A DNA stretch of 63,815 bases, counting the filler, from Hausera hauseri (Eukaryota), in NCBI GenBank assembly GCA_046269625.1. It is 11 parts of 11 records of this genome, joined end to end, with 100 filler letters (N's around TTAATTAATTAA, not from the genome) between each part and the next. Parts side by side here need not be neighbours in the genome. Positions count along the whole stretch, not along the records: positions 35,988 to 46,325 come from JBJURY010202192.1; 10 more parts are not named here. One strand, 5' to 3'. Under the pieces are notes generated by a model that searched no databases, was not told where the DNA came from, and worked only from the letters and a program-made list of their open reading frames with translations. A program made the translations under genes and the position numbers. Positions 21,431 to 55,310 of this stretch are shown piece after piece. Position 1 is the first letter of the stretch. Each line of letters begins with the position of its first letter.

Positions 21431-21726
21431 ATCACAAACTGACTAGGGATGAATGTAATACCCGGTTTTTCAGAGATTGCCTTATGCGAGATATTGGGAA
21501 TATGTGTAATACAAATGAATCCATGTTCTATGTCAAAGATCATGCTGATGGGCGAAAGAAGAAGATATTTAATAGCATATTTCAAGAAATGCGAATATGT
21601 GCATATGAATGCAACAAATTGGTAACTATACCAAAGAACATTACATGTATTAATCGTGAACATGGTTCACATTGAGCATATAAAAAGTGTTTAGCGTTAT
21701 GTCAAAGTTATATTGTTACTAAATAA
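21431..21726 (+). pseudogene. C-terminal part of a small Polinton-associated gene, convergent with PolB
   Basis: FYVKD..GRKKKIF...CINREHGSH*AYKKCLAL resembles the YVKG.EK...C..H..CA pattern of small Polinton accessory proteins. Confidence 0.35.
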
Positions 21727-21877
21727 ATGTGTTACGTAATTAGTTGGTCTTATCCTATATAGTAATTACTTAGTTTTACTTAGCCTTATCCTATGTCTCA
21801 CATAACTTATCAAGAAGACAACACGATATTTCTATACAGCATTTATTAAACAAAAAAATAACAGTGAAAAACAATAT

Positions 21878-24800
21878 CTACAATGCTACATGTCCATGAG
21901 GTAGTGTGTGGATTCCATCACTCAGGATCTGCCTCTTGTCGTCCATCCAATTCAGGCTTTTCTTATTCAGAGTTACTGTTTGTATGTTAAGATCCCTAGA
22001 CTGGATCCTTCGCATCTCTGATATAATATGAGTCTGCTCATGCAGAACTGTCACATAGTTCTGAAAACTGATCTTTTTGGCCAATGTAGCCCATTGAACG
22101 CCCTTGGCTCTCTTTTTGATCTGACCACATACGTCTAGGGCATACATTTTTTACCTGAGAGCCACAAATCTCAAGTTGATTGCTCCATTCACCTCGTCTT
22201 TGAATTTCCCAAGGACCTTTTTGTTGGGATGATCCTTTGGATAGTCCGAGGTATCCATGTGTTGAGCCAACTGGGCAAAGTTCTTATAAATGTCCTCTGT
22301 ATGCATGGACTTGAACTTGGGGACCATAATGTCGTAGTGGAAATTATACATTAGGGTCTTTGACAGCTCGAGGATTGCCATACCCACATATATGGGCTTG
22401 TTGAATAACAGTGCTGTTTTCAGCATATAGATGCCTACAAAGTTCTTAGCATATATAGTGCTGCTGTGAAAGTTAGGTTTGGCAATAAACTTCTTTGCCC
22501 GCTTTCAATCACATACTAGCTCAATTTTGATCCTGTTGCGGATATTTTCCGTGGTCTTGCCAAAAACCGAGTTGTTGTAAAGCTTGAACTGGTCTTTCTC
22601 AAAGTCGTTCTTTGCATTAGTCCGCAGCTTCGTATTGAGATCGATGTATGACTGCAGCCACATGGACTGGCTAAACTGGAGGGCTCTATGGATCTTGGTA
22701 ATACAAAGTCCATGTCTAACTGCCTGATGGAGATTGATGTAGTGGACTACATACCTCTCCCTAATACCCAAATGACAGAGCAGCTTTCTATGCTTTCCAT
22801 AAGGCGGAGGCCTGCTCTCAAGGAGGAAAGGCAGCTGTTGATGACTTGCGCGGATGGAAGCCGGATATTCCATATCCACCTCCATTATGTAACCCGTATC
22901 TCCAATGGGATCCAGGTCCAATATGGGCATATTTTCAAGATTGTTGACCCATTTGACGTTATCATATGGCAATGGGACGCTCATTGCCCCATCCATACAA
23001 GCTGTTGGCATCTAGGTATGATATATATGAGGATTCCTTGGATAGATCATAATCTGTCATGAATTTGTTGTTGGCCTTGATATACCGGTAAATGGCCTGG
23101 CATATTCCACCTCTAATGCCTCCCTCGATCATAAGGATCATGTCATAATCCTTAATAATCGGCAACCTTATGCCGGTATAGCGCAGCATTGCTGCCCAAC
23201 TCATCCTTGGAGCCGTAAAAAAATGAGCCCGATCCAATGCATGGCTCTTCATTGTACCATCCCTGAAGCTCTCCAAGACGTCCATCAGCAGCAGCACGTC
23301 CGTCTTGGGGTATATGTCGCTGTATTCCCTTATTGTTCGGCATTGGAATGCATGGCACACGTTTTTGGCAAGCTGGTAGTCAGCATCACTGATATCACAG
23401 TCAGAGAGGATACTGTAAAAGTCCTTCTTGTCCGGCAATGAGGTCCCATCCAGTGTTTTCCATGAAGTTATGTAGTTATAGGGAAACACGTCTTTACTCT
23501 TGACGAAGTCAAATGCAGTGGGGAAGAACCGCTTCGTCTCCTTGAGTTCTTCTGCAGGGAGGTTCTTCACTAAACTGTCCAGTGAATACGACATGAAACG
23601 AAAGCTGTATATGAAGCGAAACCTGATTTTGCCCACATGCTTGGTAAAGGTGATGTATTTTTCCTCACTGTTGGGGATCACATCAATGTTTCCGTCAATG
23701 CTGCCCAGTTCCCGAATAATGAAGTAGAAATCATAACCACTGAGGTTGTGAAATACTACAGGCACATATGTACATTTTTTGCAGCGAAGATTGCAGTTGT
23801 TGCATGCTGCCCATCGATATGTACCTGTAATATGGCAATGATCCTTGACTTTATGATTTTCCTTGGTGAAAGACTTGTCGCACAAGTAACATGTTGTTGC
23901 CTTGGGCCATTCTTTTGTTTGTTTCTACGACATGCTCATTGTATCTTTATGTTGCTGAAGCATGTTTTCAAGCTTATGAGCCATATATTCAAGTCGTTTC
24001 ATGAAATGTGCTGCTGCACTCGGACCCCTGAATAGAAATGCTTCACTGTCCAGTCCTTTGGCATGCATGCAATACAATGACAGTTCATGATATTGGTATG
24101 CCGTTGTGCTGCTATGTTGGGGACTGGGAGTGCAGCTGTGAACTGGCCTGAAAATAGCTTCAAAGTCGCAATAGACGACAATTGGGACCTTGAGATTCTT
24201 CTCAAACTCCTTGAATTCAATGTAATCCTCCTTGGGAAATTCTGGCCTGATACAGTAATTGTTGTTGCAGTACATATTGTGCTCTGCAAGCTTGTCCACA
24301 ACTGAATCACCACTGAAATGGGAAAAGCATCGTTTGCATATTTCGATTCTTGTTGTGTGTTTCGTAATTTGAGGTCTGACTAGACGTTCAAAGTTCTTTA
24401 TCCATATGCAATGTTTCTTTTCACCATCGTCTAGTAGGAGCAGATCCATATGATCTTCCGATTCAGTATCATATATCTGCAGGGGATAAAATTTATCCTC
24501 CTCATCCAATCCAGTGATGTTGATGGATATGTTGTTGATTCGGCTGAACTTCTTAATTTCATCTAAGGATGGATGGAATGTGATACAATGGGAAGTCATA
24601 GTTGTGTTGCACATTTTTATACAGCCAAACTCGTAAAGCATTATGTTGATCCCGTATGAGTTTTGATAGAATGGCATACATGAAACACATGTTGTCATCA
24701 GTAAAGACATTGATGCATCCTTTTTTATTAGCGATCCAATCAGGGAGATGAATATAGGAACTGTCCTGCATTGGAGAGTACTTGTGCACATACACAAGCA

Positions 24801-25271
24801 ATCTCTTGATGGTTGCTAGAGTCCATCCACTCTTCTTATCCGGAATCTCATCGGCTACACGGATCAGCTTCTCATGCTCTTCATGCAGCCATTCTACTAT
24901 ATTGGTGGCTTCAAAAAGGGTCTATTTCTGGTCTTGAAGGCCCTTTTGGACTCTTCTACATCAACATTGATGTATGTGGCCTCAAGTTTCATATTAGCCT
25001 TAATGGCCTTCAGCTCAGCTATGTTGTTCTGAAGAAACCCCTCTGTCTCGTTCTTTGTGTACTCCAGGAACTCCTTGATGGTTGATTGACCAGTTTCACC
25101 AATGACATATTTGCGGCATTTCCTCTTTAATGCTGCAGCATAACCAGGCCGCTGTCTTTGACTCTTTGATGGAGCCGTTCCGCCTGATGCTGCTGCGTAT
25201 GATGTGGCTGCTCGTTTCAATTCTCTAATATGCTTCGCAGCTGCTGCACCAGATCCAGCAGCATAATGCAA
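21878..25271 (-). pseudogene. polB: Protein-primed family B DNA polymerase with an endonuclease VII-like insert (Polinton/Maverick, beta-adintovirus type), frameshifted
   Basis: ExoI VYCDFE; EndoVII KVKDHCHITG..R.AACNNCN; ExoII FHNLSGYD; motif A YLDANSLYG; motif B KLYNNSVFGKT; PIYVGMAILELSK; LGKFKDE; DDKR. The DTDS motif is deleted. Confidence 0.92.
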
Positions 25272-25343
25272 GGCAGAATACTACGAAGCATCATACTGTA
25301 AAGCAGATTCATCAATATTATGTTGATTTTGATGCGAAGTAAC

Positions 25344-25858
25344 TCAATTGATGTTTGTGATTATAATAGAACTGTATGGAATCTGCACCGCATACAGTCT
25401 CACATCCCGGACATATATAATATTGGATACTTTTGCATTTGTGTCCATAATACAGCTGCATCGTTTCATGACACTATGTGCTTTGGATGTGCAATAATCA
25501 TAGGAACCGCACATCTGATTTGCTTTTAGGACACTTGTTATCATTGGCATATTATTGTTGAATATTTCTTTCTTCCATTTTGTGAACGAGTCCAGATGCT
25601 GTTTATGCTGGTTGTAAAATTCCTCGTAACCGATCCGACACACTACCTGACATACAGGATATACATAGTATTAAGTCCTCTTGTGCTGGTATCAAAAATA
25701 ATTCTGCATTACACTGTGGCAATTCTGCTCCTCGTGTTTCTGCGCCATACAAACTTTGTAGAAGTTGCAAATTTAAACAAATGAATTATGTGTGGAGCAC
25801 AAATAACAAACTCACCATTCTTGGAATTGAATTTGGAAGTGATGAAATATGTAGCCAT
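25344..25858 (-). pseudogene. Unknown Cys-containing ORF upstream of polB, interrupted by stops
   Basis: Co-directional coding-like stretch from the ATG near 25858 through ORF 25344-25643. No recognisable motif. Confidence 0.3.
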
Positions 25859-26126
25859 GTAAACGCATACTGTCTTGTTTATAGATTTTTTTGAACATTC
25901 TAGAACACGTTGTTTTAATGCATCATTTTACATGAACTTGTTTGTATGATGCACTTGACTTGTCAATATCATGCATAGATGTACCAAAATTTGTTTTAAT
26001 GCATCAAATACATAAATTTCTCCGCGNNNNNNNNNNNNNNNNNNNNNNNNNNNNNNNNNNNNNNNNNNNNTTAATTAATTAANNNNNNNNNNNNNNNNNN
26101 NNNNNNNNNNNNNNNNNNNNNNNNNN

Positions 26127-31100: not shown

Positions 31101-31342
31101 AAGAAAATTAGCATAAAACCTCCTCCAGGTGCTTTCAAACATCCAAAATGCAAATACTTGCCACCTGGCGGAAATAATGATCATTTTGGGAACAGGCGAA
31201 AATTCCGCCCATCCATGCAGCGAACGGAAATGCCACACAGTCCAAAGGTGAATAATTCACCCTCATTTCCAGCGGCGAAATATTCCTCTCAGCCGAATCG
31301 GAAAAATGAATCAGGAGGAAGGCTGGCGATATGCCCGCCACA
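31101..31342 (-). repeat. LTR, 5' (U3) part
   Basis: Begins TGTGGCG on the minus strand right after the PPT GGAGGGGGGTGA (31343-31354). Confidence 0.85.
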
Positions 31343-31360
31343 TCACCCCCCTCCGAGTCG

Positions 31361-34300
31361 TTATGACGGAACGACGAACTTCTCCGGTGGACGAACACAA
31401 CGTCCAGAGCGTGTAAACGTCGACTTCTCGGTCTGTGCCGATGGCGCTTCTGTCGCTTGAGGCACTGCATGGATGATATATGCGGGTTTTACCCGATCCT
31501 TTGATACAGTTTTTGATTTCCCACCGACATCCAAAATGACTGTTTTCTCGCAGCGCTTCTTTATTCGATATGGACCATCGTATTGAGGCTGCAGCGCACG
31601 ACGTACCGCATCATGCCTTAAAAATACATGCGTACATGTCTGAAGGTCCTTTGGAACATAGACATCAGGCATAGAATGACGTGATGCTGGACATGGTCGA
31701 CTTTCCCGAATTTTCCGCTTAAGTTGCTGTAAAAAAGTAGGCAAGAAAACAGGTTCCTTTATTTCGGAGTAAAAATCCGCTGGGAGCCGTATGGTTTCCC
31801 CGAAAACTAATTCTGCAGCAGAAGAATTTAAGTCTTCCCGCCAAGCACTGCGGATACCCAAAAGTACTGCAGGCAAGGCATCGACCCAGGATGAATTTGC
31901 ATGGCACATAATGGCTTGTTTCAGAGGCCTATGAAGCCGCTCGATCATCCCGTTACTTTTCGGGTTATACGGGGATGTCCTTTGTATCTGTATCCCAAAT
32001 AAAGTAGCAAAAGAGCGAAACAGGGCAGACTCGAATTGCCTGCCTTGGTCACTTGTCAGCTTAGCCGGGGTTCCATAACGAGCGATCCATTGTGAATAAA
32101 CCACCCGTGCAACCGCCTCAGCTGTTATATCTGCTATTGGGATAACCTCTGGCCAACGTGTATAGCGATCAATTATAGTAACGCAATGTGTATACCCCTG
32201 GCACACAGGTAACGGACCAATTAAATCAATATGAATGTGTTTAAAACGTCCCGTCGGAAGTACAAAATCACCGCACGGCGTTCGTGTATGCCGATGAACT
32301 TTCGTTCGTTGGCACTCGATACATGCACGTGCCCAATTTTTTATATCTTTGTTCATACCGGGCCAGACATACTTGTCGGCCACTAATTTACCGGTAGTTC
32401 TGATACCCGGATGAGCTAAGTTATGGAACGCCTCAAAAACCTTTTTCCTAAATCTTAATGGAACTAGCGGTCGAACCTGTTGAGTAGAAGCATCACTATA
32501 CAACAAAACATCGGTCTCCGGAACAGCAAATTGCTTAATCACAAAAGAATTTTTTATTTTACCGGCCACTATATCTTGAATTTCGGTATCCTCCGTTTGT
32601 GCGAGGGCTAATGCCTGCCAGTCAATCTGGGATGGAATTGTAATCTCTTCCAACCTAGATAAAGCATCTGCAATGGCATTCTGATCACCTGAAACGTACC
32701 GGATATCTGTAGAAAACTGCGAAATAAATTGCAATTGTCTAAGGCGCCTAGGTGGTGCCTTTGAGTCATTTTTTTGTAAAAACGAAAACGTAAGAGGCTT
32801 GTGATCAGTATAAATGCTAAATGGCCTCGCTTCGAGCATAAACCGAAAGTGAACTATAGCAGAATAAATGGCAAGTAACTCGCGATCATAAACTGAGTAA
32901 TTCTGTTGTGTCCGCGTCAATTTCCTGGAAAAGAATCCAAGGGGTTTTAAACCTCGCTCTTCCTTTTCATGAAGCGCAGCCCCCATAGCTAAATCGCTGC
33001 AATCAGTATATAATGCTAAGTGTGCATTTACTGAAGGATAGTGCAGCAAAGTTGCTTTAGCTAACGCCTGCTTTGTGGCCCGAAAGGCTTCCTTCGCTTC
33101 TTCCGTCCAGGAAATTTCCGTATTTTTATTTCGTTTCTTTGACCCCTGAAGATATGCATTTAATGGTATTTGTTTTTGTGCAAGGTGCGGTATAAATGAA
33201 TGATAAAAATTAACCATACCCAGAAATTGTCGCAAATTCCGGACGGTTTTAGGTAGAGGGTAATTCTGAATCGCCTGTACACGCTTTTCCAATGGCCGAA
33301 ATCCAGCCTGGCTAATCGCGTGGCCTAAAAACTCTACCTCCTGCACACCTAGTATACATTTAGAGGTATTAACTTTTATTCCGTATTCTCGGAACCTCGA
33401 AAAGATTACCTGCAGGTGTTGCATATGTTCCGTCTCATTTTGACTAGCAACCAACACGTCGTCGATATAGGCGAAACAAAATGACAATCCCCTTAGTACT
33501 TCATCTATAAAGCGCTGGAATGTTTGCGCTGCACCGCAAAGTCCAAAGCTCATAAACTTAAATTCATATAACCCAAAGGGCGTAATTATGGCTGTCTTAC
33601 ATCTATCTTCGGGGTTTACAGGTATTTGGTGATAAGCCCTTAACAAATCGATCTTAGAAAATATTCGAGTACCATGCAATTGCTGAGAAAAATCTTTCAA
33701 AAATGGCAAGGGATATTTATCAGGAACCGTAATCTTGTTTAATTGCCGATAGTCTCCCGTTGGCCTCCATTCACCCGATGCTTTCGGGACCATATGGAGA
33801 GGACTAGCCCAGTTGCTGCGTGATGGTATGCAAATCCCATTATCCAGCATATATTTAAACTCGGCCTTAGCGACCTTAAGCTGGGCAGGGTGCAATCTAC
33901 GCGCACGAGCCTGAACGGGAGGACCTTTCGTATTGATAAAATGCATTGTGTTATGTTTTACAGCCTCTGTCGATAAAAATCCCGGCTGTGTTATCTCCTT
34001 AAAATTGTCAAGAATCTGAAGAAATTGTGCTGTACCCTGTATACTTTTGATGTTCGGCATATCACATCTCAATATGTACCCTTTGTATGCACGAGATTCA
34101 TTGGGATCAGTTAACACTCTTTGTTTTATATCAATAATCAAACCAAAGTGTTGTATAAAATCCGCTCCTATAATCGGTTTAGATATATCAGCAATTATAA
34201 ATGTCCATCTATATCGCCGATCTCCCCCCAAATTCAAAGTAAATTCCTTCGTGCCGTAAGTACATATATTGGAGCCATTTGCAGCCGCCAGAGTGAAGTC

Positions 34301-35269
34301 AGTTTTCCTTTTACCTCTGACATGCCTAGCCGGAAAACAGCTCACATCACTCCCTGTATCAATAAGGTATTGTGTACCGGTACCTCTATCACTAATGAAG
34401 AGTCTTTGCCCCGTGGCATCTATCGCATTTAATTTTAACGGATCAGAAACTTTCTTTTTCTTTTTGTCATCGGCTGTGTAACTACATGGTTTAATACATT
34501 TTGTGGCTTTCTCGCCGTAGGAACGATGATACCAACAAAATCCGGCTTGGGATGTAGAACTACATGTTCTATCCGCCTTATGCCTTGTGGGTCCAGTTCG
34601 CTCCCTATATGAAGTCTTTGGGTATGTATTTTGCCTGTCATACAGCCTATTGACTTTAGAAGTTAAAGTTCTAATTTGAGATTCTAATTTTTTTAATCCA
34701 TTGGTATTGTCAGTCTGTGCAACAGCTGCCACGGTTGTCTGCGTACCTACACCCGCGATTTTATCGGCTATTTGTGCAAGCTCTGTTAAATCTAGTGGGC
34801 TTGCTGCCAAAATCGCTTGCATATTTTGTGGGAGGTGAGTCATCCAGAGGCATTTCAGGAATTCTTCGTCCAGCTTGTTGCTTCCCAACTCACGCATCTC
34901 CAGGAGAAGCTCTGAGGGTTTTTTATCACCCAGTACCAACTCCTTTAAGAGCATATGTACTTTTTCGGGTTTGGACGGCTCATACTGTTTTAACAAACGG
35001 CCTTTTAAAGTAGTATATGGTTCCTTTGCATGCGGAGTATAAACCACGTCGGAAACGTATTTTAAATGTTCCGCTCCCACTGCTGCTACCAAATAACTAA
35101 ACTTAGTACGCTCAGTGGTTACCTCAGCTATTTCAAAATTGGCTTCAATCTGGGCAAAAAAAAGCCGAATGTGTGCCGTTGAAAACTGCGGAATTTTCAT
35201 TCCAATCCTATTTACTGTTTCCCTGGGTTCCATCCCGCTAAGTGACAAAGTGACCAAAATGCAAAGCAA
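31361..35269 (-). CDS. gag-pol: Intact single-ORF Gag-Pol of a CsRn1-like Ty3/Gypsy retrotransposon (likely ATG at 35233)
   Basis: 1302 aa uninterrupted. CHCC knuckle [18 protein letters not shown], protease LIDTGS, RT YIDD, RNase H TDCS/ELLAI/TDHKPL/ADALSR, integrase HHCC + D,D35E, and a GPY motif. Confidence 0.97.
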
Positions 35270-35480
35270 AACGACTTACCCGTTCCTCCAGTTCAGTATC
35301 CAGTTACAGTTCTGTGCTGGCGAGGCTACTCACTCCCAGCTACAGTCAAAGCACTCCTCATTCCAAACTCCAAAGCGTAGCTTCTTCCTTCTTGAAACTT
35401 GTACAGGTCGCATATCAATTTTACCGACATCTGTTCGCAACTCCGGTCGTCCAAAAAGAAAACTTAGTCCAGACGATATC

Positions 35481-35488
35481 GGTCACCA
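35481..35488 (-). promoter_or_regulatory. Short PBS, tRNA-Trp-like
   Basis: TGGTGACC matches the first 8 nt of the tRNA-Trp PBS typical of CsRn1-like elements. Confidence 0.55.
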
Positions 35489-35490
35489 CT

Positions 35491-35887
35491 TTAGACAATT
35501 AAAAGTCCAATTTGACTCTGGGATACAAAGAAATCCCCAGAAGGCTACTCTTATTGTCGATAAATCCATGACGAATCCTGCAGTGGTTTCATTTAAATCA
35601 TGCACTAAACCAAAATCTTTTTCTAACAATTATTTATTTAAATTTAACATATATAAAATATAAAAGGTTAAAAAACAATTAAATTAATAAGCATCTTAGC
35701 TTTTAAACCAAGGAATGCCGAACTGGCGTACAAAAAAGAAAGGCAATCCTCGTATGAGGAAGAAAGAACTCGAATCTGAATGTCAGGAATGCTGCAAGCG
35801 TATTTAACCCAAGAAAATTAGCATAAAACCTCCTCCAGGTGCTTTCAAACATCCAAAATGCAAATACTTGCCACCTGGCGGAAATAA
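35491..35887 (-). repeat. LTR, 3' part; overlaps the other contig end by 77 identical nt
   Basis: 35811-35887 is identical to 31101-31177. The segment ends just before the PBS. Confidence 0.8.
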
Positions 35888-35990
35888 NNNNNNNNNNNNN
35901 NNNNNNNNNNNNNNNNNNNNNNNNNNNNNNNTTAATTAATTAANNNNNNNNNNNNNNNNNNNNNNNNNNNNNNNNNNNNNNNNNNNNGCT

Positions 35991-38570
35991 ATGTGTTCTC
36001 CAACTATTAGACGGACTCCAAATGAAATTCCCGTTGGATTAATTGATCCAAATAAATTTCTGTCTTATTCGCAAACTGTCCACAAGCCTCAATTGACAAA
36101 TTGCCAAACATATACAAAAACCGACGTTTCGGATGACGCGATTCTGAATTTTCCCGATATTCAATCAAAAACAACCAAACGGCGTGCTCCGGCTATTCAA
36201 AAAACAGTAAATAAAAAACAGAAATTATCTGAACAACCTTTTGTGGAACGACCGAATTTACCGCCTCAACGCTGTCAACAAAATATGGCTAAATTACTCG
36301 GATCTCCATGCTTTCGAAAATTAGTTCACGAACCAAAAATTGTCAACAATCTTCCCGATTTAACACCAATCGGATGTAAACATAAATCCAATTTGTGTTT
36401 TGATGTGAAACGTTTGCAAGAAAATTGCGTTAAATACAAACGATTTCCCTTTACAGTCCCTCGAATTAACCCTATGAATTTCAGAAATGTTTCGAAATCG
36501 TCAACGTCTGAAACATCAGAAAACAGCTTCATTCTTCAGAATCTAAATGCCATTATTCCGTACGGTCCGTTGCTCACCACCAGGGAATCCGATGAATGTA
36601 TTGATTGTATCATAGCTCCATCACCCAACACGAACGAATTGGATTATTTTAACGTTTTCAACTGCGACCAAATTTCATCTCCATCCGTCAATCTGTCTGG
36701 ACCGAATCTCGAAATGTTGCGTCCACCAAATCGAATCCAATCTCCTCAATTGTCTGTTTTCCATTGTCCAAATCGAACGTATGTGAAACTTGATCAATTG
36801 TCCGAATGTAATATGCAAACGCGGAAATTTGACGCGCAATCGTTGTTAAGATCGACGGGGATATCGAAAATACAGATTTCTCACAAATCAGCCTTTATTT
36901 CCGATTCCGTTTCAGCAACTATCGATTCAGAAACGGGTGAAATCGTCAATAAAGTTTCCAATGAACAGATTTCGTCGGAAATTAAACGAGAAAAATTGCT
37001 GTTGACGTTTACTCTAAATCCGCCAGATGATATTGAGAAAACCGTTCGTAACATAACCGACGTGTTAGGAATTGACTACAGCAGCGTTGCATTCAAATTA
37101 ACAACATCCGGTGGTGAGATATCAATCGATAAGCATAGTATTGTGGACAGTAAATTGAAATCCGATCCTGGTATTTTACCAAAGGAAATATCCGATCGTT
37201 TGGCAAACACGTCAGTTGCCGTCAATTCCTTGTAATCAACTGCCTGTTGTCCAACGACAACCACAAGTACGACGAATAATGCCGTTTCAAATTTATATTC
37301 AGACCATATTAAATCGGATTTTCCAACTTATTTATACAAAATATACAAATCGACGTCATTAATCGCCAAACCGAATTTGAAATGCTCAAATTACGATAAA
37401 CCACCAATTGCGAACTGGGATAAATCCAAATGTCGAGAAACGCTGTTTTGTGATGATGCATGCCAATTTCATTTCAACAATGCAACTGTTGACGACGATG
37501 GAAACGATGTTGTTCCATGAATAACGTCACCAACAACATTAAAACGACGGAACTGCGGGACCGTTGTATTTTTATCGGCCAACAACCATCGGAAATGGCG
37601 GTGATTTTATAAGGATCCTTGTCGAAATCGAAACAGTTGTCCAAGAAATCCGGTAACGTCGTCATTTGTGATAAGTTGTTCATAAAAAAGAAATTGAATT
37701 TGCAGCAATTAAAATTGTCACCAGCGACTGCAGCAGCAGCTGCGTCGGTAACGCAAAAAAATCACAAAGGGTAAAAGTACTTAACGTTCCATTCCAAAAT
37801 TCTAACCGATCAGTCATTGTGTCATTTGTCGGTTATTTCCGATAATCAATTTAAAAAAACTTTCAATTCCAAATGTGTCTTAAGGTGGAACGATCTCGCC
37901 GATAATTGAATTTGTTCGCTCTGTAAACGAAGCGGTGATTTGTCGGAAAACGGTGCTGTTCGTTTGTTGTTTTGACACGGACAAATGACTCCATGTTAAT
38001 TGTGCATTGTGATGTAACAGTGTTTTTGAAATGCAGTGCTGTGCATGCAATAACGTTTCCGAATCATTTGAGTGCGCCGCAAAAACCATCTGTTTGTCGT
38101 GCGGCAAATCCGGTGCGGGTATCGGATGTCTTTATTTTCGATGTACGTCGAAATTCCATGTGCCTTGTGCTCGGAAGATAAATTGCGTTTATTATGCTGA
38201 TAGAACTATATATTGTCCGGCACACTTCTATCAAGATCTCGGTTTGCCACTGAATTCGCTTATCGTTGGTAGGCGAGTGTACATTTCACGAGATGAGTCC
38301 CAACAAGTCGCCTTAGTTATAAATGACGATGATCGTAATTTTAATTTACGAATTGGATCACTTATTCTGTTGCCAATTGGCCAGTTGCTGCCTCAACAGA
38401 TTCATTCAGGTAATTACCATAATCTCAATTACGTCTATCCCGTTGGTTATAAGTCCTGAAGAATCCATTGATCATCTAGATTAATCGGTTGTCCATCAAT
38501 TTACGAATGAGAAATTGTCCCTGACAAAGACAACAAACAATTGTTTCAAGTTACAGCTCACGACAAATGG
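35991..38570 (+). pseudogene. KMT2C: KMT2C/D (MLL3/4, trithorax-related) fragment: low-complexity region, extended PHD and FYRN; no SET domain
   Basis: *LHVNCAL*C..VFE...CLSCGKSGAGIGC..FRCTSKFHVPCARKINCVYYADRTIYCPAH; VGRRVYISRDE; LRIGSLILLPIGQLLPQQ...YPVGY. Trp codons are converted to stops. Assignment of the upstream 414-aa ORF is by position only. Confidence 0.8.
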
Positions 38571-38599
38571 ATGAGTCTTGCTGTTGATCGACAGAAAGA

Positions 38600-38880
38600 T
38601 ACGGACTCTACGAGACGCATTACCACGTCACTGACTGATAAATTGATGTCGTGAGTACATTTGGGCATTCAGGGAGCGTTGTTGTCTCAGTTAATATCAC
38701 CGGTGTACCTTTATATCATTCAGTTTGGAAAAGATTACATACACGAACATATATCTCGAGCATTGTTGTGTCGTGTTCTAGTGAATTATTTGATAGACGA
38801 AACTGATACGTTCCATGACTCATTGATCGAGTTACACAAATAACAACCGATAAGCTTCGAATGGACTGGTTTCATTGGGA
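38600..38880 (+). pseudogene. ADAR/ADAT adenosine deaminase catalytic-domain fragment
   Basis: SLTDKLMS*VHLGIQGALLSQLISPVYL..I.FG..Y..EHISRAL..R, compared with ADAR [43 protein letters not shown]. Confidence 0.75.
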
Positions 38881-39659
38881 TGATGGACGGATTCACGTTA
38901 TACCAGTAGAAGCAAAGCAGAACGTCGCTGTATTAAAGAAGGTAATTGGACCAAAATCAAGAAAAATGATGGCGGAAATTTTCGAACCGGACTCTGAATA
39001 ATTTCTATTCGAAAAATAACGAACACCTTTTCAAATGTGCCAAAGGTGCACTGCATAACGTTACTGAACCTTCAACAACTGATGAATTATTGAAGAGGAA
39101 TTGAATTCAGTTACTATATATGGCTTAACAAACAGAACTGGTCATCCACCTATACAGACAAAGACACATCTAAGCTATTTAATCAAACATCTCTGTCTAT
39201 CATTTAGGTCTACATTCAGTATTCATCATACCGGTCTTCAACTTTACAACGGTCAGGAGTTACTCCATCTAATTTGTTCGAAAGAAATCGGACAGATCGC
39301 CCGTAAGACGACACGGTTGATATACAAAGACATCGATCTGCAATCTCCACAATACAACACGATACCACCAATCATGGAGAGACCAGTACACAACGAGGTG
39401 AGATTCACTATTATGCATTGTTCGGTCGGCGAATATTTTGATATTTTTTACCAACGATAAATCTTACACAACATTACCCTATAAAACCTATATATCTACC
39501 ATTATAAGGTTACCTTCCTCAAATGTGAGTATATCTGAGATTGTCGATTTACTTTCACGTTTGAGTATTTATATCGACGAAGAATTGAGAATCATGTCTC
39601 ATCATGTCCAGATAAGTAACATACCCACTTCGAATAATACTTTAAAGACAATCAGTCCA

Positions 39660-40390
39660 GCGGGTTCGCTCGCAATGGATAGTATGACTCTTTGGGGATT
39701 AGTAAACGATGTACTTGATTTAAATTGGCTACATAAAATATTACCGACAATCATGCTGTTACTTTTATTGATTGCATACACGTCTTCACATGCGACAACT
39801 TACATCGTCATACCGATGGCCTTTAAAACATTCTGGCAAAGTTGCCAATTTCGTTCGTATTTATTATAGTTATATGGTGTTCTTAGCTATTTCCAGTACA
39901 ATTCCCATCAATATTTTCTCCGGTATAAAGAAAATTTGGGATAGCCAAAGTTTGGTTGTCGCAATTTCTAGTCATTGTTTTGATTTTTTTGAATTTGCTA
40001 CCAGCCCTTTTTGACAGAACCATTTTTTCTCTATATCTGTTATGATTCCATCTGTTTTCTGTCGTCTCGAAATTTGGAAACACAGCCGTTATACAGCGAA
40101 GGCGTCTGTTGCTGATACAGTTTGTAATTATTCCTACACCACTTTTACCTTTGTTTTGATTCTAGACCATTTCAGTAAAACACTGCTTTTCTTTATTCCT
40201 CAGATAATAAATTTCGTCTATTCTATTCAACTGTTGTTTCACTTTATTCTTTGTCCACGACATTGCTTCTTGAGATATCTTGCTACTGTCGACAAAGTTA
40301 CTCATTCTACATTGAAATTTAAATTAGCTTCATTGGGCAAAATTGGTAAACTACGTTTTCACGTTCTGAAGTATTTACACTCGTAGGAAT
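39660..40390 (+). pseudogene. DPAGT1: UDP-GlcNAc:dolichol-phosphate GlcNAc-1-P transferase (ALG7) fragment
   Basis: GLVNDVLDLNWLHKILPTI, YYSYMVFLAISSTIPINIFSGI, VADTVCNY and ILDHFSKTLLFFIPQIINFVYSIQLLFHFILCPRH. Confidence 0.85.
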
Positions 40391-40640
40391 TCATGAACTC
40401 GACGATGACTAAATAGAATTTAATAAAATGGCCCAACCACCCTGTGGCATAGGTAAATGCTTATAACTCGTACCTTGTTCTACCAAACCGTTCAAATCCC
40501 ATACCGAACCATCTATGGAAATTATTGGATCTGTAAGGAGACGAAATGGAATCGAGGTACATTATCGCAAAGTAACCGTCCTAACTTTGTATGACCACGT
40601 TGACATACCACTCTATACTGCTTGCCGTTTATCATCGCTA

Positions 40641-41960
40641 TTTTCATTCTCACTTTATGTCAATAACAATTTAATATAAACCGTATATATCACACAACGT
40701 ATGGAAACATTACAATTATACGCTCTCGTTTATAATACCATCGCCTATGCAGATTTTTACCTGGCTCACAACGGTTTCATTTTAACCGACCTCACACAAA
40801 TCATGGTCTCATATCACCATCTATGTATACACGTCAATCCTAGGGTCCGCGGCGGTATGATTGCTCCACTAACTAGTGACACCACCGACAAAGCAACCAC
40901 AAAACCCAAACCCGTTCTCTACTACCCCAAACCAAACCATCCACCTACTTCGACCAATGCAAATTCTTCTCACAAAAATCCTATCAACACTTCCCCACAC
41001 TGTATTGAATACTTTATAGTTAATGAAAAGTCCAGCAAAACTTGGCTCCACTTCCGTCAACTCTGGTTACAGTCCAGCGGTATCACAGACTCGATATCCA
41101 AGCCCATAATCTACTTTATCTTTTACCAAACTCTATAAAGGCCTCAATCCATAACCTACTGGACATCTTCCAACACCCCGACCCTTATACACAATTGTTC
41201 AATGCCGTGTTAAAACAGACAGAACCATCAATTGTTTCAATAATTCAGCGTTTCTTTAATAAAAATGCAATGGGGATACAAAAACCGAGCGATTTCCTAC
41301 GCACCTCGTTGGCTCACTTACGTACTCTAGGCGTCACCAAGGAACATAACCCAGATCTACTTCGACGATATTTCCTTAACGCCTTATCCATTTAAATAAG
41401 GGCTTTACTTACCGTTGTGAAAGATTCTACAGCTTTAGATAAACTGGCTGAATTGGCAGACAAAGCACACGAAGTTTTACAAATCCAATCACAACCTATC
41501 ATATCAGCCGCTATTATTAACGATGACAATCAACGACATACTTCTATTGAGCACCAATTAAATCACCTACGAGCCGAAAATGCGGCCCTACAAACAACAA
41601 TAAATAATATAAACAATAAAATTAACGAGATTTCATTGACTCGACGTGAGGGTTTCATACGTGACCGCAACCATTCAGTATCTCGTGGTCGTTCACCTTC
41701 ACCTGGACGATCACTAATTTGCTATTACCACGGTAGATTCGACAACAAAGCACAAAAATGTTACCTAGGATGAAAATTTTATGATCAAAGATACCATACA
41801 GACACCGTAATTTGCATCTATCATGCAAAATTCAGACATAATGCACGCAAATGCATTCCAGTTTGCACGTTTAAAAACAAATCCCACCACGCAAATAATG
41901 AACCTACAACTTTCGTTTCTAACAGTCGTCCAGGTTCTCCGATTACAAAAAAACTGACTT
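40641..41960 (+). pseudogene. gag: CsRn1-like gag with an N-terminal ubiquitin-like domain (40641-40856) and two CHCC knuckles
   Basis: ...DFYLAHNGFIL...IHVNPRVRGG; capsid region KPSDFLR and LDKLAELADK; CYYH..KC..G* and CIYH..RKCIPVC. Confidence 0.8.
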
Positions 41961-44900
41961 GCTACGAGGGTTTTCGGCAAACACTGGCGAAGGCCACTCT
42001 TCGCTTCCTAATAGCCGAAAATTTTCTTTCACCGTTTTCACATTAAAAGCCTTTACCATCGCACCGACACCTCAACACATAGATTTTCTCTGATTCAGGT
42101 GCAGCGATTTCTTTACTGCTGCTTACCTTTCCAACTCAACATACTCTATCAAAAATTAAACCTTTATTCACAGCTTCCGGACAACCGCTACACGTTTTCG
42201 GTACATATATGCTTTCTTTTATCCTACTGAAATTTACTCAAACTTTCCGCTGGACATTTACCGTTGCAAATGTCCAAAGAGCCATTTTAGGACCTGATTT
42301 TCTTTTGCACTATAACCTCCTCGTCCATTGCAAAAAATGCTGTTTAACAAGCGGTCGCAATAAGGAGCGATTTTATCACGACCACACAATGTCGGCTGTC
42401 GTACGGATGAAGGCAACTCAAAAGCCGATATTACAAAAATCGTTAAACAAACCTTTTTCTAACAACCATGGCACCTTGCTTTATAAATCACTAAAGAACA
42501 ATGTTATTGACGATTGGGGTTTACACAGCGATGAAAGTGATCCTGTTACTACTACAAAATTTTTCGATAAAACTACAAACTACAATACCATCTTCAATAC
42601 TACCATCCTGCATCGAATACCACTTTATCCTCGACCACCAAATAACGTCCGAATTGCTACTGTTACTGATACCGCCAAAATTACCGGTAAGACCTCATCG
42701 CTACCACTAAATTTTTCACAATTACCTGCAAGTCTGCAGCAATTCATCCACGTATCTTTTTCTAGAGTTATTCAAAAAGATAGATCTTTTACACCAGCAA
42801 ACACCACTTTTCACCACATTGTGGCACAACATCAAAGACCTATCCGCCAAAAGGTGCGCCCTTTACCTCCTCGTCGTAGATATGCAGTTGAAGCCAAATT
42901 TCTAGAATTAGAACGTTCCGGAATTGTACATCGCTCTAAATCACATGGTCGTCACCACTATATATCGTTCAAAAGAAGGACGTAATTTTTCGACCATGTG
43001 GCGATTATCGTCAGTTTTCCATATGCTCATCCCTATATCTATGACTTATTAATTGTTTCTTCCCCAGCCAAACAACACGAAGAACATCTAAGATCAATTT
43101 TTCAACGCTTACACCAACATAACTTGCAGATAAATTTCGATAAATGCCATTTTTTAGAAGCGTATACATTTTCTTGGTTATGTTATCTCTGCCGAAGGTC
43201 ACTCGCCTCAATCGGACCGAGTCGAAGCCTTAAAAATCGTGCAGCTACGTCGTACAACAACAGAAATGAGGAGCTTTTTAAGCAATGCATTTCTTCCACA
43301 CGTATGTGCCATACTGCTCTAAACTTACCGCACTGTTTGCTCACCTTAATGGTGGAAAAAAACACCAACCTATACTATAAACTCCTGAACTTGTAAACAA
43401 ATTCGAAAAGCTAAGAGAAGGTTTAGAAACTGTCGAAATATTAGCTTTTCCAAAGCACGATGCACAGCTGATCCCCACTACGGACGCTTCCACCACCGCT
43501 GTGGGCGCCGTACTCATCAAATCTATAAGGGTGACAACCAGCCCTTGGAATTTTTTTCATGCAAGTTAACACCTCCCGAAACTAGATACTCCACTTTCGA
43601 CCGAGAACTACTGGCGATAGTTCTTGCTTTAAAACACTTTTCACATTTACTAACTGCTCGACGTTTTACCATATAGACCGATCACAAACCTTTAATCAAC
43701 ATCATGACAATGAAACATCCATCATCTCGGCAGGAACGTCAGATCTCTTACTTGTCGACGTTTAATTTTGAGATCAAACACATTAACGGTGTAAACAATT
43801 TAGTCGCCGATTTCCTTTCCAGATCCGTTAGCTCCATTAATTTTAAACCTATATTCACACAAGATCAGCTGCAAGAAAATCAAACACCTTTATACATGCT
43901 TAAATCTTTTCGATCTTACAACATCATTGACGGCGTAGCTTTTGACACTTCCAAACAAGGTCATTCCGTAATAGTCTTCGCACCACCTTTGCAACGACAA
44001 GCGTTTAACAGCGTACATTCGCTGCATCATACTGGGGCTAAGGCAACTTTTCGTTTGCTCCACCGGCAAGTAATATGGCCGACTATGAGTTCCGATGTGC
44101 AAGCGTTAGTTAAGGAGTGCGTGGCTAGCCAAAAATTTAAAATCACAAAACATCTAAACCACCACTATATCACTTCCCTTGCACATCACGTTGCGAGACC
44201 GTACATATAGATATCGTCGGCCCTCTTCCTCTTGACAACGGTCATCAATTCATTTTGACCATGAAGGATCGCGCCTCACGTTGGCCAGAATCTGTCCCTC
44301 TACGGAGCACTAACACGGACACAATAGCCGATGTTTTCATCCGCACTTGGATCAGCAGGTTTGGATCTCCTAGATTTATCATTTCGGACCAAGGCCCCCA
44401 ATTCGAGTGCAACCTATTCAAATCACTCGTCAGTAGATTGGGAATCCGTCATATACACACTACGCCTTATCACCCACAATCGAACGGTCTTATTGAGGGA
44501 TTCCACATAACCATGAAAACGTCGCTTAAAATTCTCGCCGAATCCAACAGTAGTTGGACTGTTCTTCTTATGGTCCTGCTTGGTTCGCGGAACACTCCAT
44601 CCACTTCCACTGGATTTTCACCTACCGAAGCTTTATTTGGAGCACCTGTTCGTTCATTGTTTGAACTAACTGCCCTAGATAATACACCTACAGACGAAAC
44701 GATCAAAACAGAGCAGGAACATTTCGTCGCGGTCAGTAAAGACTCGTTCTGTAGAATACTACACAACAAAAAATGTATTTACCCGACAATTTGTATTCCG
44801 TAAAGTTTGTTTGGCCAAGGAATCAAACACCGTTTGGTTTTCAACCGCAGTATCTATGGACCTATAAGCTAATTCAAATACATTCTCACAATGTGGTAAT

Positions 44901-45000
44901 TTTCAAAGATAAAAAGGAACAAGCAGTCCATATAAATAACGTGAAACCTGCCTTTATTGTAGACAACACATCTCCAACCAAAACTTCAACAAATTTTCTC
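41960..45000 (+). pseudogene. pol: Decayed Gypsy pol (PR, internally deleted RT, RNase H, integrase)
   Basis: DSGAA near 42092, WTFTVANVQRAILG.DFL, TTDAS, YSTFDRELLAI, TDHKPL, VADFLSR, SDQGPQFE and TTPYHPQSNGLIE. Confidence 0.92.
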
Positions 45001-45418
45001 ACTCCTGCATTTCCTTCTGTTTCTGTTCCTGTCTCCACTCCTACTCCATTTTCTTCTGTTACTGTTTCTGCTCCCACATTTTTTTCACCTCCTATTCCCA
45101 TCCCTAACCCAACTGCATTTTCTCCTCCGGCTTTTCACCCGTTACTACTCCTCCCTCCAACAATGTATCTTTAGGAACTCCCTTCGACAATTTCAAATAT
45201 TCACCTTCAATTACTTCTTTTCCTTCGCGTATTTTGCCTCAGCAAGACACTAAGCTCAACGTGACAGAAATTGACATCTTTCCTCCCGAAACACCTCAAC
45301 AACTAGAGACAAAAACAAAGACATACCGCAAAACTGCCACTTTGAGCAAGAGAAACATCGAATGGATACAACGTCTGTTCATTTAATCTTCCCTTTTATC
45401 CTTACAGTTCACAACTTG

Positions 45419-45436
45419 CCACGGGGGGTATTGTAG
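45419..45436 (+). promoter_or_regulatory. Polypurine tract and probable 3' LTR start (TGTAG at 45432)
   Basis: CCACGGGGGGTAT-TGTAG downstream of integrase. Confidence 0.55.
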
Positions 45437-45570
45437 TGCCTATTAAAAAATTTTAGTTTTGTCAAAGTCGGCCGTATGCTTGAATTCGTCTCTTAACTCA
45501 TTAACTTTACTCAGATCGACTCCTCGAAATTCTTTTTTGGAAAATCCAATCGATATACTTTAGATATAAA

Positions 45571-46300
45571 ATGAACGACATTTTCCATGATATTTATTGT
45601 GGTTCTGTTGAAGGTCTTTTTTGTTTCATGACATTCAACAAAGATTCCATATTATTGGATTCCTTAACTGATGATTACCGATTCGATCCAACCCATGCTG
45701 CTGCAGCATTCAACCAAGTTCATATTTTATCACTGCTCTATCTCTGGGAATGTAACATGGACAAACACGACAGTAATGGTCTGACACCAATCATGTACAC
45801 CTGCTTCAATGAAGATTCTATCGAATGCTTTCAATTTCTCTCTCTTATCGGTGCTAATCTAACGATTAAATCCATCAAAGTTAACATGTCAATAATTAAT
45901 CTTTTGATCCGGTATAAAAATGTCAAAATCCTTAGACACCTTGCTTTTAAAACAGATTTCAAAGATCTTTGTTCGACAAAACTCAGTTTGTCTAGTACCA
46001 AGTTCCTGGATTCCATTTTACTATCAGTATTTATTGCTTCATTCTTCCATGGTTGTTCTTTCTGATTTTAATAGTTTTAAATTCAAACAGATTCGGAATA
46101 ACACTCAAAATTGTTTTGGTAGATATAGCTTTTTATGCACACTCAGTAGACGTTACTGGATACAATCGTTCACGATTAACTCTGGGATCATGTTCGATAA
46201 TCATGTCGCCACATCTTGAGTTTTTTTAGAATCATGTTCTATGGAATTTCGGCATTCAACTAGTTGAATTTGGTATATTTGTACTGTGTGCTGTGAAGGC
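45571..46300 (+). pseudogene. Ankyrin-repeat fragment, ZDHHC17/HIP14-like palmitoyltransferase
   Basis: PTHAAAAFNQVHILSLL...MDKHDSNGLTPIMY...SIECFQFL, then a hydrophobic segment and a possible decayed Cys/His-rich region. Confidence 0.5.
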
Positions 46301-51597: not shown

Positions 51598-54325
51598 TTA
51601 TGGATGAAGTGGAGTGTGCCTAAGAAACTCCTCATATCCGTAGTAGTCGTTGGTAGCGTTATGTTTTTTCATTGATGTAGTCGATCCGGTTATGGAGAGT
51701 AGCCGTAAGGAGTGATGATGTGGCCTAAAAAATTAACACGTTTTAGAAAGAAATGACACTTAGAGAAATTGACTTGAAAATTGCTGTGATGTAGTCTGTG
51801 AAAGATAATACGGAGGTGTTCTTGATATTGTTTAACATATGTGGAGGTAACTAGTATGTCATCAATGTATGGATGAGCAAAGTCAAGGCTTGAGAGGACG
51901 GTATCAATATGTCATTGAAAAGTTTGGGAAGCTCTACGTAAACCAAATAGCATAAAGATATATTTATAGAGGCCACATGGAGTAATGACGGCAGTTTTTG
52001 GTATATCATCAGGTGCAACCGGAATGTGATGATAATCTTTATGTAAGTCAATTTTAGAGCACGTGGTAGTATTGGTAAGACTTTGCAGGATGTCCTTTAT
52101 GAGAGGTAAAGGGCACGCATCTAGGGCTGTTAGGTTGTTTAACTGCCGATAGTCACCACATGGTCCATCTTTCTTTGTTACTACATGCATTGGTGATGCC
52201 CATGGTGATTTTGATCTTCGAATGATGCCAGCATTTTAGAGTTCATTAAACTCTGATTCAACGGCTTTTCGCCTACGATGTGTCAGTGGTCTGACATTTT
52301 GCCTCATATGTCTTTGGTGTTTGGTGACTATGTGGTGATAAGTTGTAAAAGGCGGCTTGAGATTGACATCCTTTTTGAGTGTGCGGAAGCAAGAAGTTGT
52401 GATATAAGATTTGAGATTGGAATTCAGCGATGAGAATGATTGAGGCATATCATCAAAAGTGACAGTGGATGGTATTGGCGAAGAAAAAACGTAACTGCCA
52501 CTCTCAACACTCCGTTTACTCGGTCGTTTTAAAACCGACTTAGATACGTTTGATGTGATAAAAGAAATGGATGAAACAGTAAATGCACCGTTATTTGCCG
52601 ACAAGCAAGTTTTCAAATTCACGCGCAAGTTGACAGCCGAAAACGGCCTAGTTTCTACTGGGGCTGTTTGGTAGATATTTGTTAGCATCCACGACGGAGA
52701 TTTTGCGCAGCGGACAGCGATACTTGCAGTCAACTAGCAGATCATATACGGCCAGAAAATCTGAGCCGATTATGGAGAATTTAATACTAGCCACGTAAAA
52801 TTTCCAGACAAACTCATCTGGCAAGTTGGCGAATGTGGAAATCAGTTCTGCAGTGAAAAGCGGTGGAGAAGAAACTATAGTGGATTTAGGAGTGAAGGAC
52901 AAGGGAAGGAGCGAAAAGGCAGCTCCTGAATCGATGAGTAAGACAATGTGTGAAGCACTGTTGTGGAGCAATGCAGCTTTTAACAGAAAAACTGCAGAGG
53001 CGGTGTTAAGACGGCCAGAATATTCAGCGGTATTGTTACTTTTTTGAGGTTTGTTGGGAAAAAAGAAGAGGAATGAAAAGAGGGAGGAGGCGAAGAAGAT
53101 GGAGAAAACTAGAATTCTTTTTATAATATTTGCATCCTGACACACACGACCTAGCCTTGGACTAATACTTTGTGTGATAGATGCAGATCGGGTTGTCTAC
53201 TGCATAACGTTCATCGTAGAATCGACAACCTAAAACACATTTCCTTGCGTCTCTGCGGAATTTATTGTAATAAAAACATGTCATTCTACCATCTCTAGAT
53301 TTGGACCGAAAAGAGTGCCTGGAAAAACTGCGATTGCGCGAACCACGGTTTTCGCTTCGTCGAGGCACAGATAAGTCACTAAGTTGGACTGTGATCGCAG
53401 AAATTGCCTGTTGTAATGTGTCGAATTGCTTCTCCATCATATGCAGTTGTTGTGCAAATAAACTGTTATCTGTGTGTGACGATGTGTGAGGGGTTGCTGC
53501 AGCTACTGGCTCTGAATTATTAGACTGCAAAATGTCAAAACTTTTGTCTGCCAATAGGGCGAGTTTTTCAAGGGCCGTTGAGTAGTCTACTACCGTGAGC
53601 AACGTTCTGATGGAGGTTGGCAAAGATGAAAGAAAATACCTACGAAGAAGATCGGCATTGTTTATAGGAGTGGCGCCTAAAAGACTTAATTGAGAGATCG
53701 CAGTTTTAAGGAAATCTGATGTTTTTGATTTCCGATGGCGTGTTCATTAAAGTATTTCTGAATTATGCTGTCAATGGAAGTGTCCGTGATATGCAGAACT
53801 GATTCATAAAGAATATCATATGTAGTTGAAGAAGTAAATATGTCAGCAAGATTGTTGATTTGCTGCTTGATATTAGCTGGAAGTAGTAGCAGCAAACTCT
53901 TCGCCCGCAAAAAGGAGTCTGTGATATGATTGGCTTTAAGCCATTGCAAATGGAACTATAGCCAAGTGCGACTCGAATTTGTTTTATCAAGAAAAAAATC
54001 TGTGCAAGGAAGATTTGGAAATGTAGTTCGTGTGGGATCGGCAGGACAACGACCAGATTTGGTTTTGACTAAATTTTCGGAGAAATGGTCAGTGTCTGAT
54101 CCACCACGGATACGACAATGGACAGTGAGTATCACTGAATGTTTCCCGGTTGCAAAAGATGACAGAGTCGGAAGGTAACAGAGTCAAGCCATTGTGCATG
54201 CATTAAAAGTCGGAGGAGCCGAAAAAGGAAGACAATTCAGAATAAAGGATGCGCGCCGTATGTTTTCATGCAACCATTAGTGTGTATTCATGTTTATTAT
54301 TAAAAAAATAAGAATGGAAAGGGGA
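51598..54325 (-). pseudogene. gag-pol: Decayed CsRn1-like Gypsy gag-PR-RT, same family as C2 and C8, with an N-terminal ubiquitin-like domain (54100-54325)
   Basis: LTVHCRIRGG, LEKLALLADK, twin CHCC knuckles, [27 protein letters not shown] and YIDD. Confidence 0.9.
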
Positions 54326-54849
54326 TACAGTGCAGCGGGGACGGTCACGCTTGGTTCCCCAGTCAGACAATTCCTTGGCTGATTTGTCAATAGAGAAATG
54401 TTTCATGAAAATCCAATTAAAATTACTTTGACTGTGGCCCTTTTGAGTCTTTCCAGTGAATTAACTTTCCATCGAATGACTCATCGAATGAACGAATGCG
54501 CCATCAGTGAATACCACCAGATATGATTTGGATTCAGGATTGGCATCTGTTAGTTGCAACATTTACCCCGTAGTCATATTGACAAATTTTTTAAGAACCT
54601 GTTGGGTTAAATCGCTTCTCAGTGTGTTATACTGGAAGTCTGAGTACATGGATTGCTCAATAGTCGACAATGACGGATAGATAGCATCAATCGTGATTGC
54701 GTTGGATTGTTTTGCGGATCTGTCATTTTGTGCATTGTAATCAAAGGTCTTTGCCTTTCCAGTCATTTTAAACGCTATATCATCATTAAGCTTCGTTGGA
54801 GTTGATAGATTTTTTTGTTCCATGTTGTCGATGTTGATCGTATTCTCCC

Positions 54850-55310
54850 AATTTACCCAAATCAATGATACAACATGAACAAGCGGTTGAATAAAACGCT
54901 TAATGTTTTCGAAAGCTTCTGATTCAATATACTCAACGTGAGTTATTAATGGAACTAAGAAGGCGTAAATCGTTTCGGCTTCAACATATGCTCGTACAGC
55001 CTTTTTAAATGTTTCTTTATACGGTTTGGCATATACAATGTTGTATTTTTCCAACAACAATGTCATGTTTTTCACTTTTGGATGTATTATTTGAGTATGA
55101 ATATCAAAAACACAATTTCATCGCTTTTTCCAAAATTTCAATTCATCGGAAGGTATAGCAATTTTGCCTTTGGAAATAATTTCGCCAGAATCTTCTAATA
55201 CTTCGGCTATATGTGATGTCCAATTAATAACCGTTGTTTCAAAACTGTACATCAGACTTACAATAACGTCATCACCCCTGCAATTTTAACATCAAATTCA
55301 TCCATTTTGT
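54850..55310 (-). pseudogene. Axonemal dynein heavy chain N-terminal (DHC_N1) fragment, outer-arm beta type
   Basis: FETTVINWTSHI...ELKFWKKR...KVKNMTLLLEK...EAETIYAFLVPL...IQPLVHVVSLIWVN resembles the DNAH9/11/17 tail. Confidence 0.75.

Follow-up and report, generated by a model that had tools for sequence, protein, structure and literature searches.

Fragments of several host genes precede a retained gag-pol in two members of a Gypsy lineage from a Hausera hauseri assembly

In a 63,815-nt stretch of DNA from the Hausera hauseri assembly GCA_046269625.1 (hereafter the window), a degraded Gypsy-type long terminal repeat (LTR) retrotransposon is preceded by a mosaic of fragments of unrelated host genes. 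An initial annotation had named these as KMT2C/D, ADAR, an unassigned segment and DPAGT1, lying nearly without spacers, and the three gene names were confirmed by Pfam and PDB matches. A second element of the same lineage carries fragments of other genes in the corresponding place. The explanation to which we incline, with modest confidence, is that host messenger RNA (mRNA) was taken as cargo into the 5' leader of the Gypsy element when its reverse transcriptase (RT) switched templates, and that the cargo was then amplified passively. The process as such is known; the variant seen here places the cargo before a gag-pol that has been kept, and does so in two members with different genes. The window consists of 11 contigs placed end to end with identical 100-base N spacers between them, and the mosaic occupies the first 4.65 kb of the contig at 35988-46325. 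Position 35988 is the first base of that contig, so the left edge of the mosaic is an assembly end.

The largest piece, about 2.6 kb long, comes from a Trr-like KMT2C/D gene. Its ePHD-FYRN part matched the Pfam families FYRN and zf-HC5HC2H as well as human KMT2D (E 9e-25, improving to 2.5e-31 when stops were read through). The opening 414-codon open reading frame (ORF) had neither a Pfam nor an Atlas match and was recognized as KMT2C/D through P0121, an intact 1438-residue protein with ePHD, FYRN, FYRC and SET domains, to which it is 65% identical (the one strong match of two among 1.84 billion representatives). Residues 229-1103 of P0121 are collinear with 36096-38570, the longest insertion relative to this protein being 19 residues, and the piece ends about 12 residues into FYRC, without SET. 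Among longer proteins, none of 128 candidates proved to be a homologue of the PHD-FYRN piece. The fragments had been described as truncated and decayed, and pieces cut mid-domain with stops or frameshifts were indeed found, but the first 1.2 kb of KMT2 is open. There are no breaks in the 414 codons of 35988-37232 compared with nine stops and two frameshifts in the next 445 codons, at 37233-38570 (binomial p=0.001).

About 40 bp separate the KMT2 piece from the ADAR piece, which covers positions 138-196 of the 329 in the A_deamin profile (about 60 positions, E 3e-12) and matched ADARs in PDB. It may extend to about 38950, judging from a motif that we take to be part of the same domain. The unassigned segment that follows had no PDB match under E 1, and its Atlas matches were unnamed and of low recognition. 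In Pfam it gave a furry-type match only, at 39440-39605 (furry/MOR2-PAG1_N, E 0.02-0.03), which is below the cut-off and serves as a lead only. The DPAGT1 piece aligned with residues 104-162 (E 2e-4) and 169-341 (E 4e-29) of the 409-residue human chain in PDB, and the alignment across the frameshift shows no intron-sized gap. A homologue search with this piece returned 1 of 64, a relative 40% identical and of no use as a parent. All three named pieces are truncated, contain stops or frameshifts and lie on the gag strand. The common orientation had been pointed out from the start, and it agrees with the lack of any Pfam match in the three opposite-strand frames of the mosaic. No poly-A runs of 8 or more were present at the mosaic pieces, and in 40378-40700, where a primer-binding site (PBS), a transfer RNA (tRNA) gene and a Helitron-type end were looked for, none was found.

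The element behind the mosaic has gag followed by protease (PR), RT, RNase H (RH) and integrase (IN), arranged in this order, then a polypurine tract and a 3' LTR starting with TG, as in Ty3/Gypsy elements. Its gag starts near 40701, just past the end of the mosaic. The N-terminal block of gag (40701-40856) had no Pfam match; it is identical at 19 of 50 positions to the block of a related locus, L004, and ends in R-x-R-G-G, which in our view resembles the C-terminus of ubiquitin. A gag start block of about 60 residues recurs across the lineage, at 40701-40856 in this element, at 54100-54132 (- strand) in its sister and at L004:43-177. About 75 RT codons are missing from the pol of the element when compared with L004. 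The LTR start after the purine tract is common to the element and its relatives L003, L004 and L008. The ankyrin-repeat ORF that follows it, for which a parent gene was sought and not found, could be LTR cargo.

Table 1. Coordinates of the mosaic, the Gypsy element behind it and the sister element, along the window
Feature	Position	Strand	Evidence
Artificial N spacer between two unrelated contigs	35888..35987	.	
KMT2C/D (Trr-like): upstream region, ePHD, FYRN, cut within FYRC	35988..38570	+	Pfam, PDB, P0121 alignment
ADAR-type adenosine deaminase domain fragment, one stop	38607..38795	+	Pfam, PDB
Coding-like stretch without assigned identity	38800..39665	+	
DPAGT1 fragment with one frameshift and one stop (human residues 104-341)	39669..40377	+	PDB
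Unassigned 220 bp and AT-rich leader remnant	40378..40700	+	
Broken gag; N-terminal 60-residue block matches L004	40701..41900	+	
Broken pol, Gypsy order PR-RT-RH-IN; stops, frameshifts	42083..45024	+	
Polypurine tract and LTR start (TGTAGTG at 45432)	45421..45438	+	
Ankyrin-repeat ORF, starting 136 bp into the presumed 3' LTR; multi-copy in X1	45568..46062	+	
Sister element: Gypsy gag-PR-RT	51598..54132	-	
Sister cargo 2: dynein heavy chain N1	54851..55249	-	profile 2-130 of 562, E 5e-24
Sister cargo 1: ankyrin repeats, cut by contig end	55931..56227	-	best PDB matches ankyrin-1/-2

The sister element shows the same arrangement with different genes. Its ankyrin and dynein pieces lie upstream of gag on the gag strand, and its contig (51598-56227) ends after about 2 kb of this cargo. 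A motif after the ankyrin piece is presumably ZU5-like; Pfam and PDB did not confirm it. Between the dynein piece and gag, 54400-54850 (- strand) is an open coding-like stretch with no Pfam match, and it may be a third cargo gene. The sister shares 45-57% of amino acids with the mosaic element over gag pieces and 65% of the DNA in RT, and it is 75% identical in DNA to an element in the contig at 6693-10857. This third family member lacks gag and is uninformative on cargo. On the - strand of the same contig, a remnant abuts a purine tract that leads to an LTR-like start and then protease-pol; this remnant shares 71% identity with the polB-type region at 24154-24983. All six identified cargo pieces are in gag-strand orientation, and nine opposite-strand frames that were scanned gave no Pfam match. 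The chance of a shared strand would be 1/64 if the pieces were independent, and only two loci contribute to it. Random fragment orientation had been named beforehand as an outcome that would speak against serial capture, and it was not seen at either locus.

Relatives were drawn from 82 outside loci. A scan of metagenome contigs supplied the best 80 of 511 matches, and viral contigs supplied two distant loci. The two viral loci were found with an alignment; an integrase-only search of the viral contigs gave no relatives, and a 20-base KMT2 pattern had no exact match there. In the metagenome contigs, none of 186 matches from a first pattern scan was confirmed. The integrase of the element is 37-52% identical to those of the best 80 metagenome loci, many of which have a tRNA-Trp-type PBS and short LTRs; none exceeds 52%, and none carries the cargo pieces of the mosaic. 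The nearest known Gypsy elements are probably those of the CsRN1-like clade. In a quick integrase tree of 98 rows, the element groups separately, in a 9-row clade that includes L003, L004 and L008 (SH-like approximate likelihood ratio test support 98). L004, which has the R-x-R-G-G gag block, is the only complete member of this clade: it is 5175 bp long and free of cargo, its LTR measures about 520 bp and its leader about 190 bp, and its PBS is one that we take to be of the tRNA-Leu type. The LTRs of relatives measure about 170-520 bp. In the 13 of 82 loci that have a PBS and then a gag match, the gap between the two is 59-167 bp; these lengths exclude L018, in which PBS and gag are not contiguous, and L051, in which a PBS-like match lies within pol. 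The gap is 255 bp in an intact element in the neighbouring contig of the window.

Contigs of a sequencing run, X1, were used to look at copies of the mosaic. X1 is available as contigs only, 42% of the sampled words match and it is possibly the source of the window; its contigs were placed on the window at 85% likeness, and the depths summed over them do not equal copy number. Pieces matching exactly have a depth of 11-15. Summed depth over KMT2 is 9-40 at 35988-37367, 51-60 from there to 38057 and 1024 in the PHD bin. It is 140 over ADAR, 26-113 over the unassigned part, 165-1188 over DPAGT1 and about 580-600 at 40376 and 40677. Over gag-RT it reaches 850-4600 and over IN up to 33000, and after the polypurine tract it drops from 600 to 110. 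Cargo of normally single-copy genes at 10-80 times the baseline points to amplified fragments. One contig joins 38170 to 39223, linking KMT2 to a point past ADAR; another joins 40343 to 40394, linking DPAGT1 to the sequence behind it; and an identical 280-bp contig crosses the junction into DPAGT1. The high summed depth and the two variant joints, within the contigs of one run, are consistent with secondary amplification. Over the 5' part of KMT2, X1 contigs differ from the window by about 5%, being more degenerate at 36723-36726 and more P0121-like at 37134-37343; at least two versions of this part exist. The stop at 38469 in the window is absent from three X1 contigs, so this copy decayed independently.

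The first 1.2 kb of KMT2, open and low-copy, could have been added later from the parent mRNA, or it could mark a join with the parent gene, and such a join could be real or made by the assembly. A chimera confined to the 5' end of KMT2 is less likely than not, but conceivable: the contigs are short-read contigs from a highly repetitive sample, and the switch from open to decayed sequence, with its mixed X1 variants, is what a passage from parent to copy would produce. That a short-read assembler threaded the whole mosaic together from unrelated repeats is very unlikely. The junctions between unrelated genes share no repeat for such threading, separate X1 contigs run across the junction into DPAGT1 and connect pieces in an unchanged order, and the sister contig has the same layout.

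The initial annotation had also reported that no conventional 5' LTR is visible. This is correct for the 4.7 kb assembled, which ends at the contig edge at 35988 and contains no 5' LTR, PBS or target-site duplication: the post-tract sequence has no copy upstream within the contig, the contig (35988-46325) contains no LTR-sized direct repeat, and no PBS of either type known from the relatives (up to two mismatches) was found upstream of gag in the mosaic element or its sister. However, because the mosaic starts at the contig edge, the missing 5' LTR may lie off the contig. The further proposal that the mosaic is the content of a cargo-filled LTR did not hold up well. A giant LTR would have to run for more than 5.6 kb, from the ankyrin piece after the polypurine tract to the KMT2-ADAR-DPAGT1 mosaic, and we regard it as improbable. 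The conserved LTR start does run into a multi-copy ankyrin ORF, and at such a length the two contig ends would share no overlap. However, a PBS is absent between the cargo and gag in both elements, and the LTRs of relatives are far shorter. In addition, the depth of an LTR should be at least that of gag-pol, and the mosaic and post-tract sequence are mostly at 10-600 compared with 850-4600 for gag-RT. The lack of a PBS and the lower depth together favour cargo in the leader over cargo in the LTR.

Under the favoured explanation, capture into the leader by template switching, cellular mRNAs would first be co-packaged in the element's particle. During minus-strand synthesis, RT would leave the element RNA just upstream of gag and copy part of an mRNA, and would then return or hop to another mRNA, so that repeated rounds would stack DPAGT1, the unassigned piece, ADAR and KMT2. 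The PBS and 5' LTR would be located past the contig edge. With kilobases of upstream start codons before it, gag would be silenced, and loaded copies would decay and move in trans on helper proteins. Further switches or deletions would produce variants such as the KMT2-to-39223 joint without ADAR. An RNA origin of the cargo is suggested by the sense bias, the mid-domain ends and the lack of intron-sized gaps, all features of the sequence alone. The idea of serial capture by template switching, already put forward in the initial annotation, thus stands in part: capture tied to the Gypsy lineage is supported by the cargo of the sister, the uniform orientation and the X1 variants, but the RNA origin and the switching itself are things we infer. 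The mosaic likely belongs among LTR-mediated chimeric retrocopies. Parts of host genes from several parents are fused in it to LTR-element sequence, which flanks the cargo on its 3' side; on the 5' side the contig end intervenes in both elements.

Capture at the DNA level by Helitron or Pack-TIR elements keeps introns. The pieces had been called apparently intronless, and no intron-sized gaps were found in KMT2 (19 residues at most) or DPAGT1. This does not imply intron loss, as P0121 is itself a single ORF on a 4940-bp contig, and the absence of introns would be uninformative if the host is intron-poor. A Helitron, a Pack-type element or repeated segmental duplication could have built the mosaic, which then landed in or beside the Gypsy leader. 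The uneven depth of the mosaic suggests that its pieces also occur apart, and Helitrons take up as many as nine gene fragments (PMC6431247, according to the available part of that text). We nonetheless consider this origin unlikely. Helitron or terminal inverted repeat ends around the mosaic had been named as findings that would contradict capture by the retrotransposon, and none were found in the assembled sequence. At the boundary between cargo and gag, neither strand of either element shows a CTRR end with a strong hairpin. Of 50 CTRRT sites in six strand-regions, three have a hairpin of -3.5 kcal/mol or lower and none of these is at the boundary; the best hairpins (-3.7 to -4.9 kcal/mol) all lie within coding pieces, and decay could hide an end. 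Terminal inverted repeats were not seen either, there being none above chance in the contig, whose 5' end is missing. Both elements also have gag-sense cargo and no PBS before gag.

The mosaic could also have arisen by upstream read-through, or from processed pseudogenes made by long interspersed elements beside 5'-truncated Gypsy copies, with amplification of the block later on. The open, low-copy 5' part of KMT2 does look near-functional, and 5' transduction is described for SVA elements (PMC13317346, in the portion of the source at hand). This origin is doubtful. Poly-A tails are missing, the pieces are internal and lack 3' ends such as the SET domain, and independent insertions would not all take the strand of gag. 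The least probable explanation is the one offered as an alternative in the initial annotation, a uni-strand PIWI-interacting RNA (piRNA) cluster-like trap with sense-aligned remnants. The fragments are on one strand, decayed and tightly packed, as such a trap would have it. However, clusters of the flamenco type consist mostly of transposon pieces in antisense, gathered at a single locus. Here the pieces are from host genes rather than many transposon families, are sense to the element, occur with two separate elements and are apparently dispersed, amplified and rearranged in other contigs.

Several observations weigh against capture into the leader by template switching. Neither end of the element is assembled, and a flanking LTR pair and a target-site duplication are unseen. 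The pieces of the mosaic occur in none of the 82 outside loci, which leaves the number of examples at two. Introns may be scarce in the host lineage, P0121 being one ORF and a parent-like X1 contig being gapless over 37014-37461. Each of the two variant joints is one contig placed at 85% likeness, in a run that may itself be the source of the window. None of the 8 pieces listed, out of 7057, bridges KMT2/ADAR or leader/gag. The depth of the mosaic is very uneven, from 9 to 1188, so the 4.7 kb as a whole was not amplified uniformly as one unit. Finally, in the Drosophila cases of Tan 2016 (PMC5131818), as far as the available text goes, cargo replaced the element's ORFs.

LTR-mediated retroposition has been described in flies, mosquito, fish, chicken and mouse, with multi-gene chimeras and secondary amplification, and in mouse up to four genes and an Alu are combined in one chimera (PMC5131818). 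The mosaic resembles the cases in the accessible part of that paper in having partial sense host pieces with LTR sequence, several parents and non-autonomous amplification. It differs from the Drosophila cases in that its cargo is upstream of gag, which has retained its N-terminus and is followed by PR-RT-RH-IN. Moreover, flanking LTRs, microsimilarity and intron loss were demonstrated there. Maize Bs1 similarly combines segments of three unrelated host genes in one multi-copy LTR element (PMC5131818, PMC13317346). From the passages available, however, Bs1 has a hybrid ORF, is non-autonomous and has few copies, whereas the cargo here is decayed, at least 4.7 kb long and from an animal. The bdelloid Juno/Vesta ORF3 (PMC5408684) and planarian Burro and others (PMC6431247) are Gypsy-type elements that, like the element reported here, have added host-derived coding sequence and kept gag-pol. 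Their extra ORFs, as presented in the sections at hand, are unbroken, occur throughout the family and either lie downstream of pol or are fused in frame, whereas the pieces here are broken, upstream of gag and specific to a member. Helitron and Pack-TIR elements also form amplified multi-gene mosaics (PMC6431247, PMC13317346, in part), though at the DNA level and with defined ends, and no such ends are present at the mosaic. Open-access text yielded no description of cargo from several genes placed before a gag-pol that is retained, and the supplements of Tan 2016 could hold one.

The majority of the contigs in the window are transposon-bearing, and they apparently come from more than one organism; four of the other contigs were covered at selected ORFs. 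The contig at 1-6592 carries an RT remnant whose translation presumably resembles fish L2/CR1 elements, which suggests that the window mixes contigs of fish and at least one other animal. The intact neighbouring element (31101-35887, - strand) has a 1304-codon Gypsy gag-pol with a DUF7041 gag, a 77-bp terminal repeat (collapsed-LTR circle) and its PBS 255 bp before the ATG; it is likely young and of a different lineage. At 10958-11991 (- strand) is a broken Monjiviricetes-type viral fusion glycoprotein (Pfam E 6e-22, 9e-29), possibly an LTR-element env or an endogenous viral piece. A protein-primed DNA polymerase B, decayed and carrying an endonuclease VII domain, occupies 21431-26026 (- strand), and we take it to be Polinton- or adintovirus-like; an ORF at 56451-57296 (+ strand) is similar to it by eye, with no such Pfam match. 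Two copies of a 240-bp direct repeat (16786-17027 and 21097-21330) are 92% identical and 4.3 kb apart with no long ORF between them, and this pair may represent a non-autonomous LTR element.

Most known examples of gene capture by LTR elements are isolated ones, with cargo standing in for the element's own genes. Here both members with an assembled gag and upstream sequence carry multi-gene cargo, so capture may be routine in this host. If it is, the genome would preserve an extensive natural record of the mRNAs that get into retrotransposon particles and of the points at which RT changes template. A bolder and rather unlikely form of this idea is that the 5' leader of the lineage, or perhaps its LTR, serves as a standing mRNA-sampling cassette in this host. 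Capture would then be the rule, and many copies would each carry their own multi-kb string of sense gene fragments, growing over rounds and multiplying pieces of hundreds of single-copy genes. Such fragments also inflate counts of KMT2C/D, ADAR, DPAGT1, ankyrin and dynein paralogues in short-read data.

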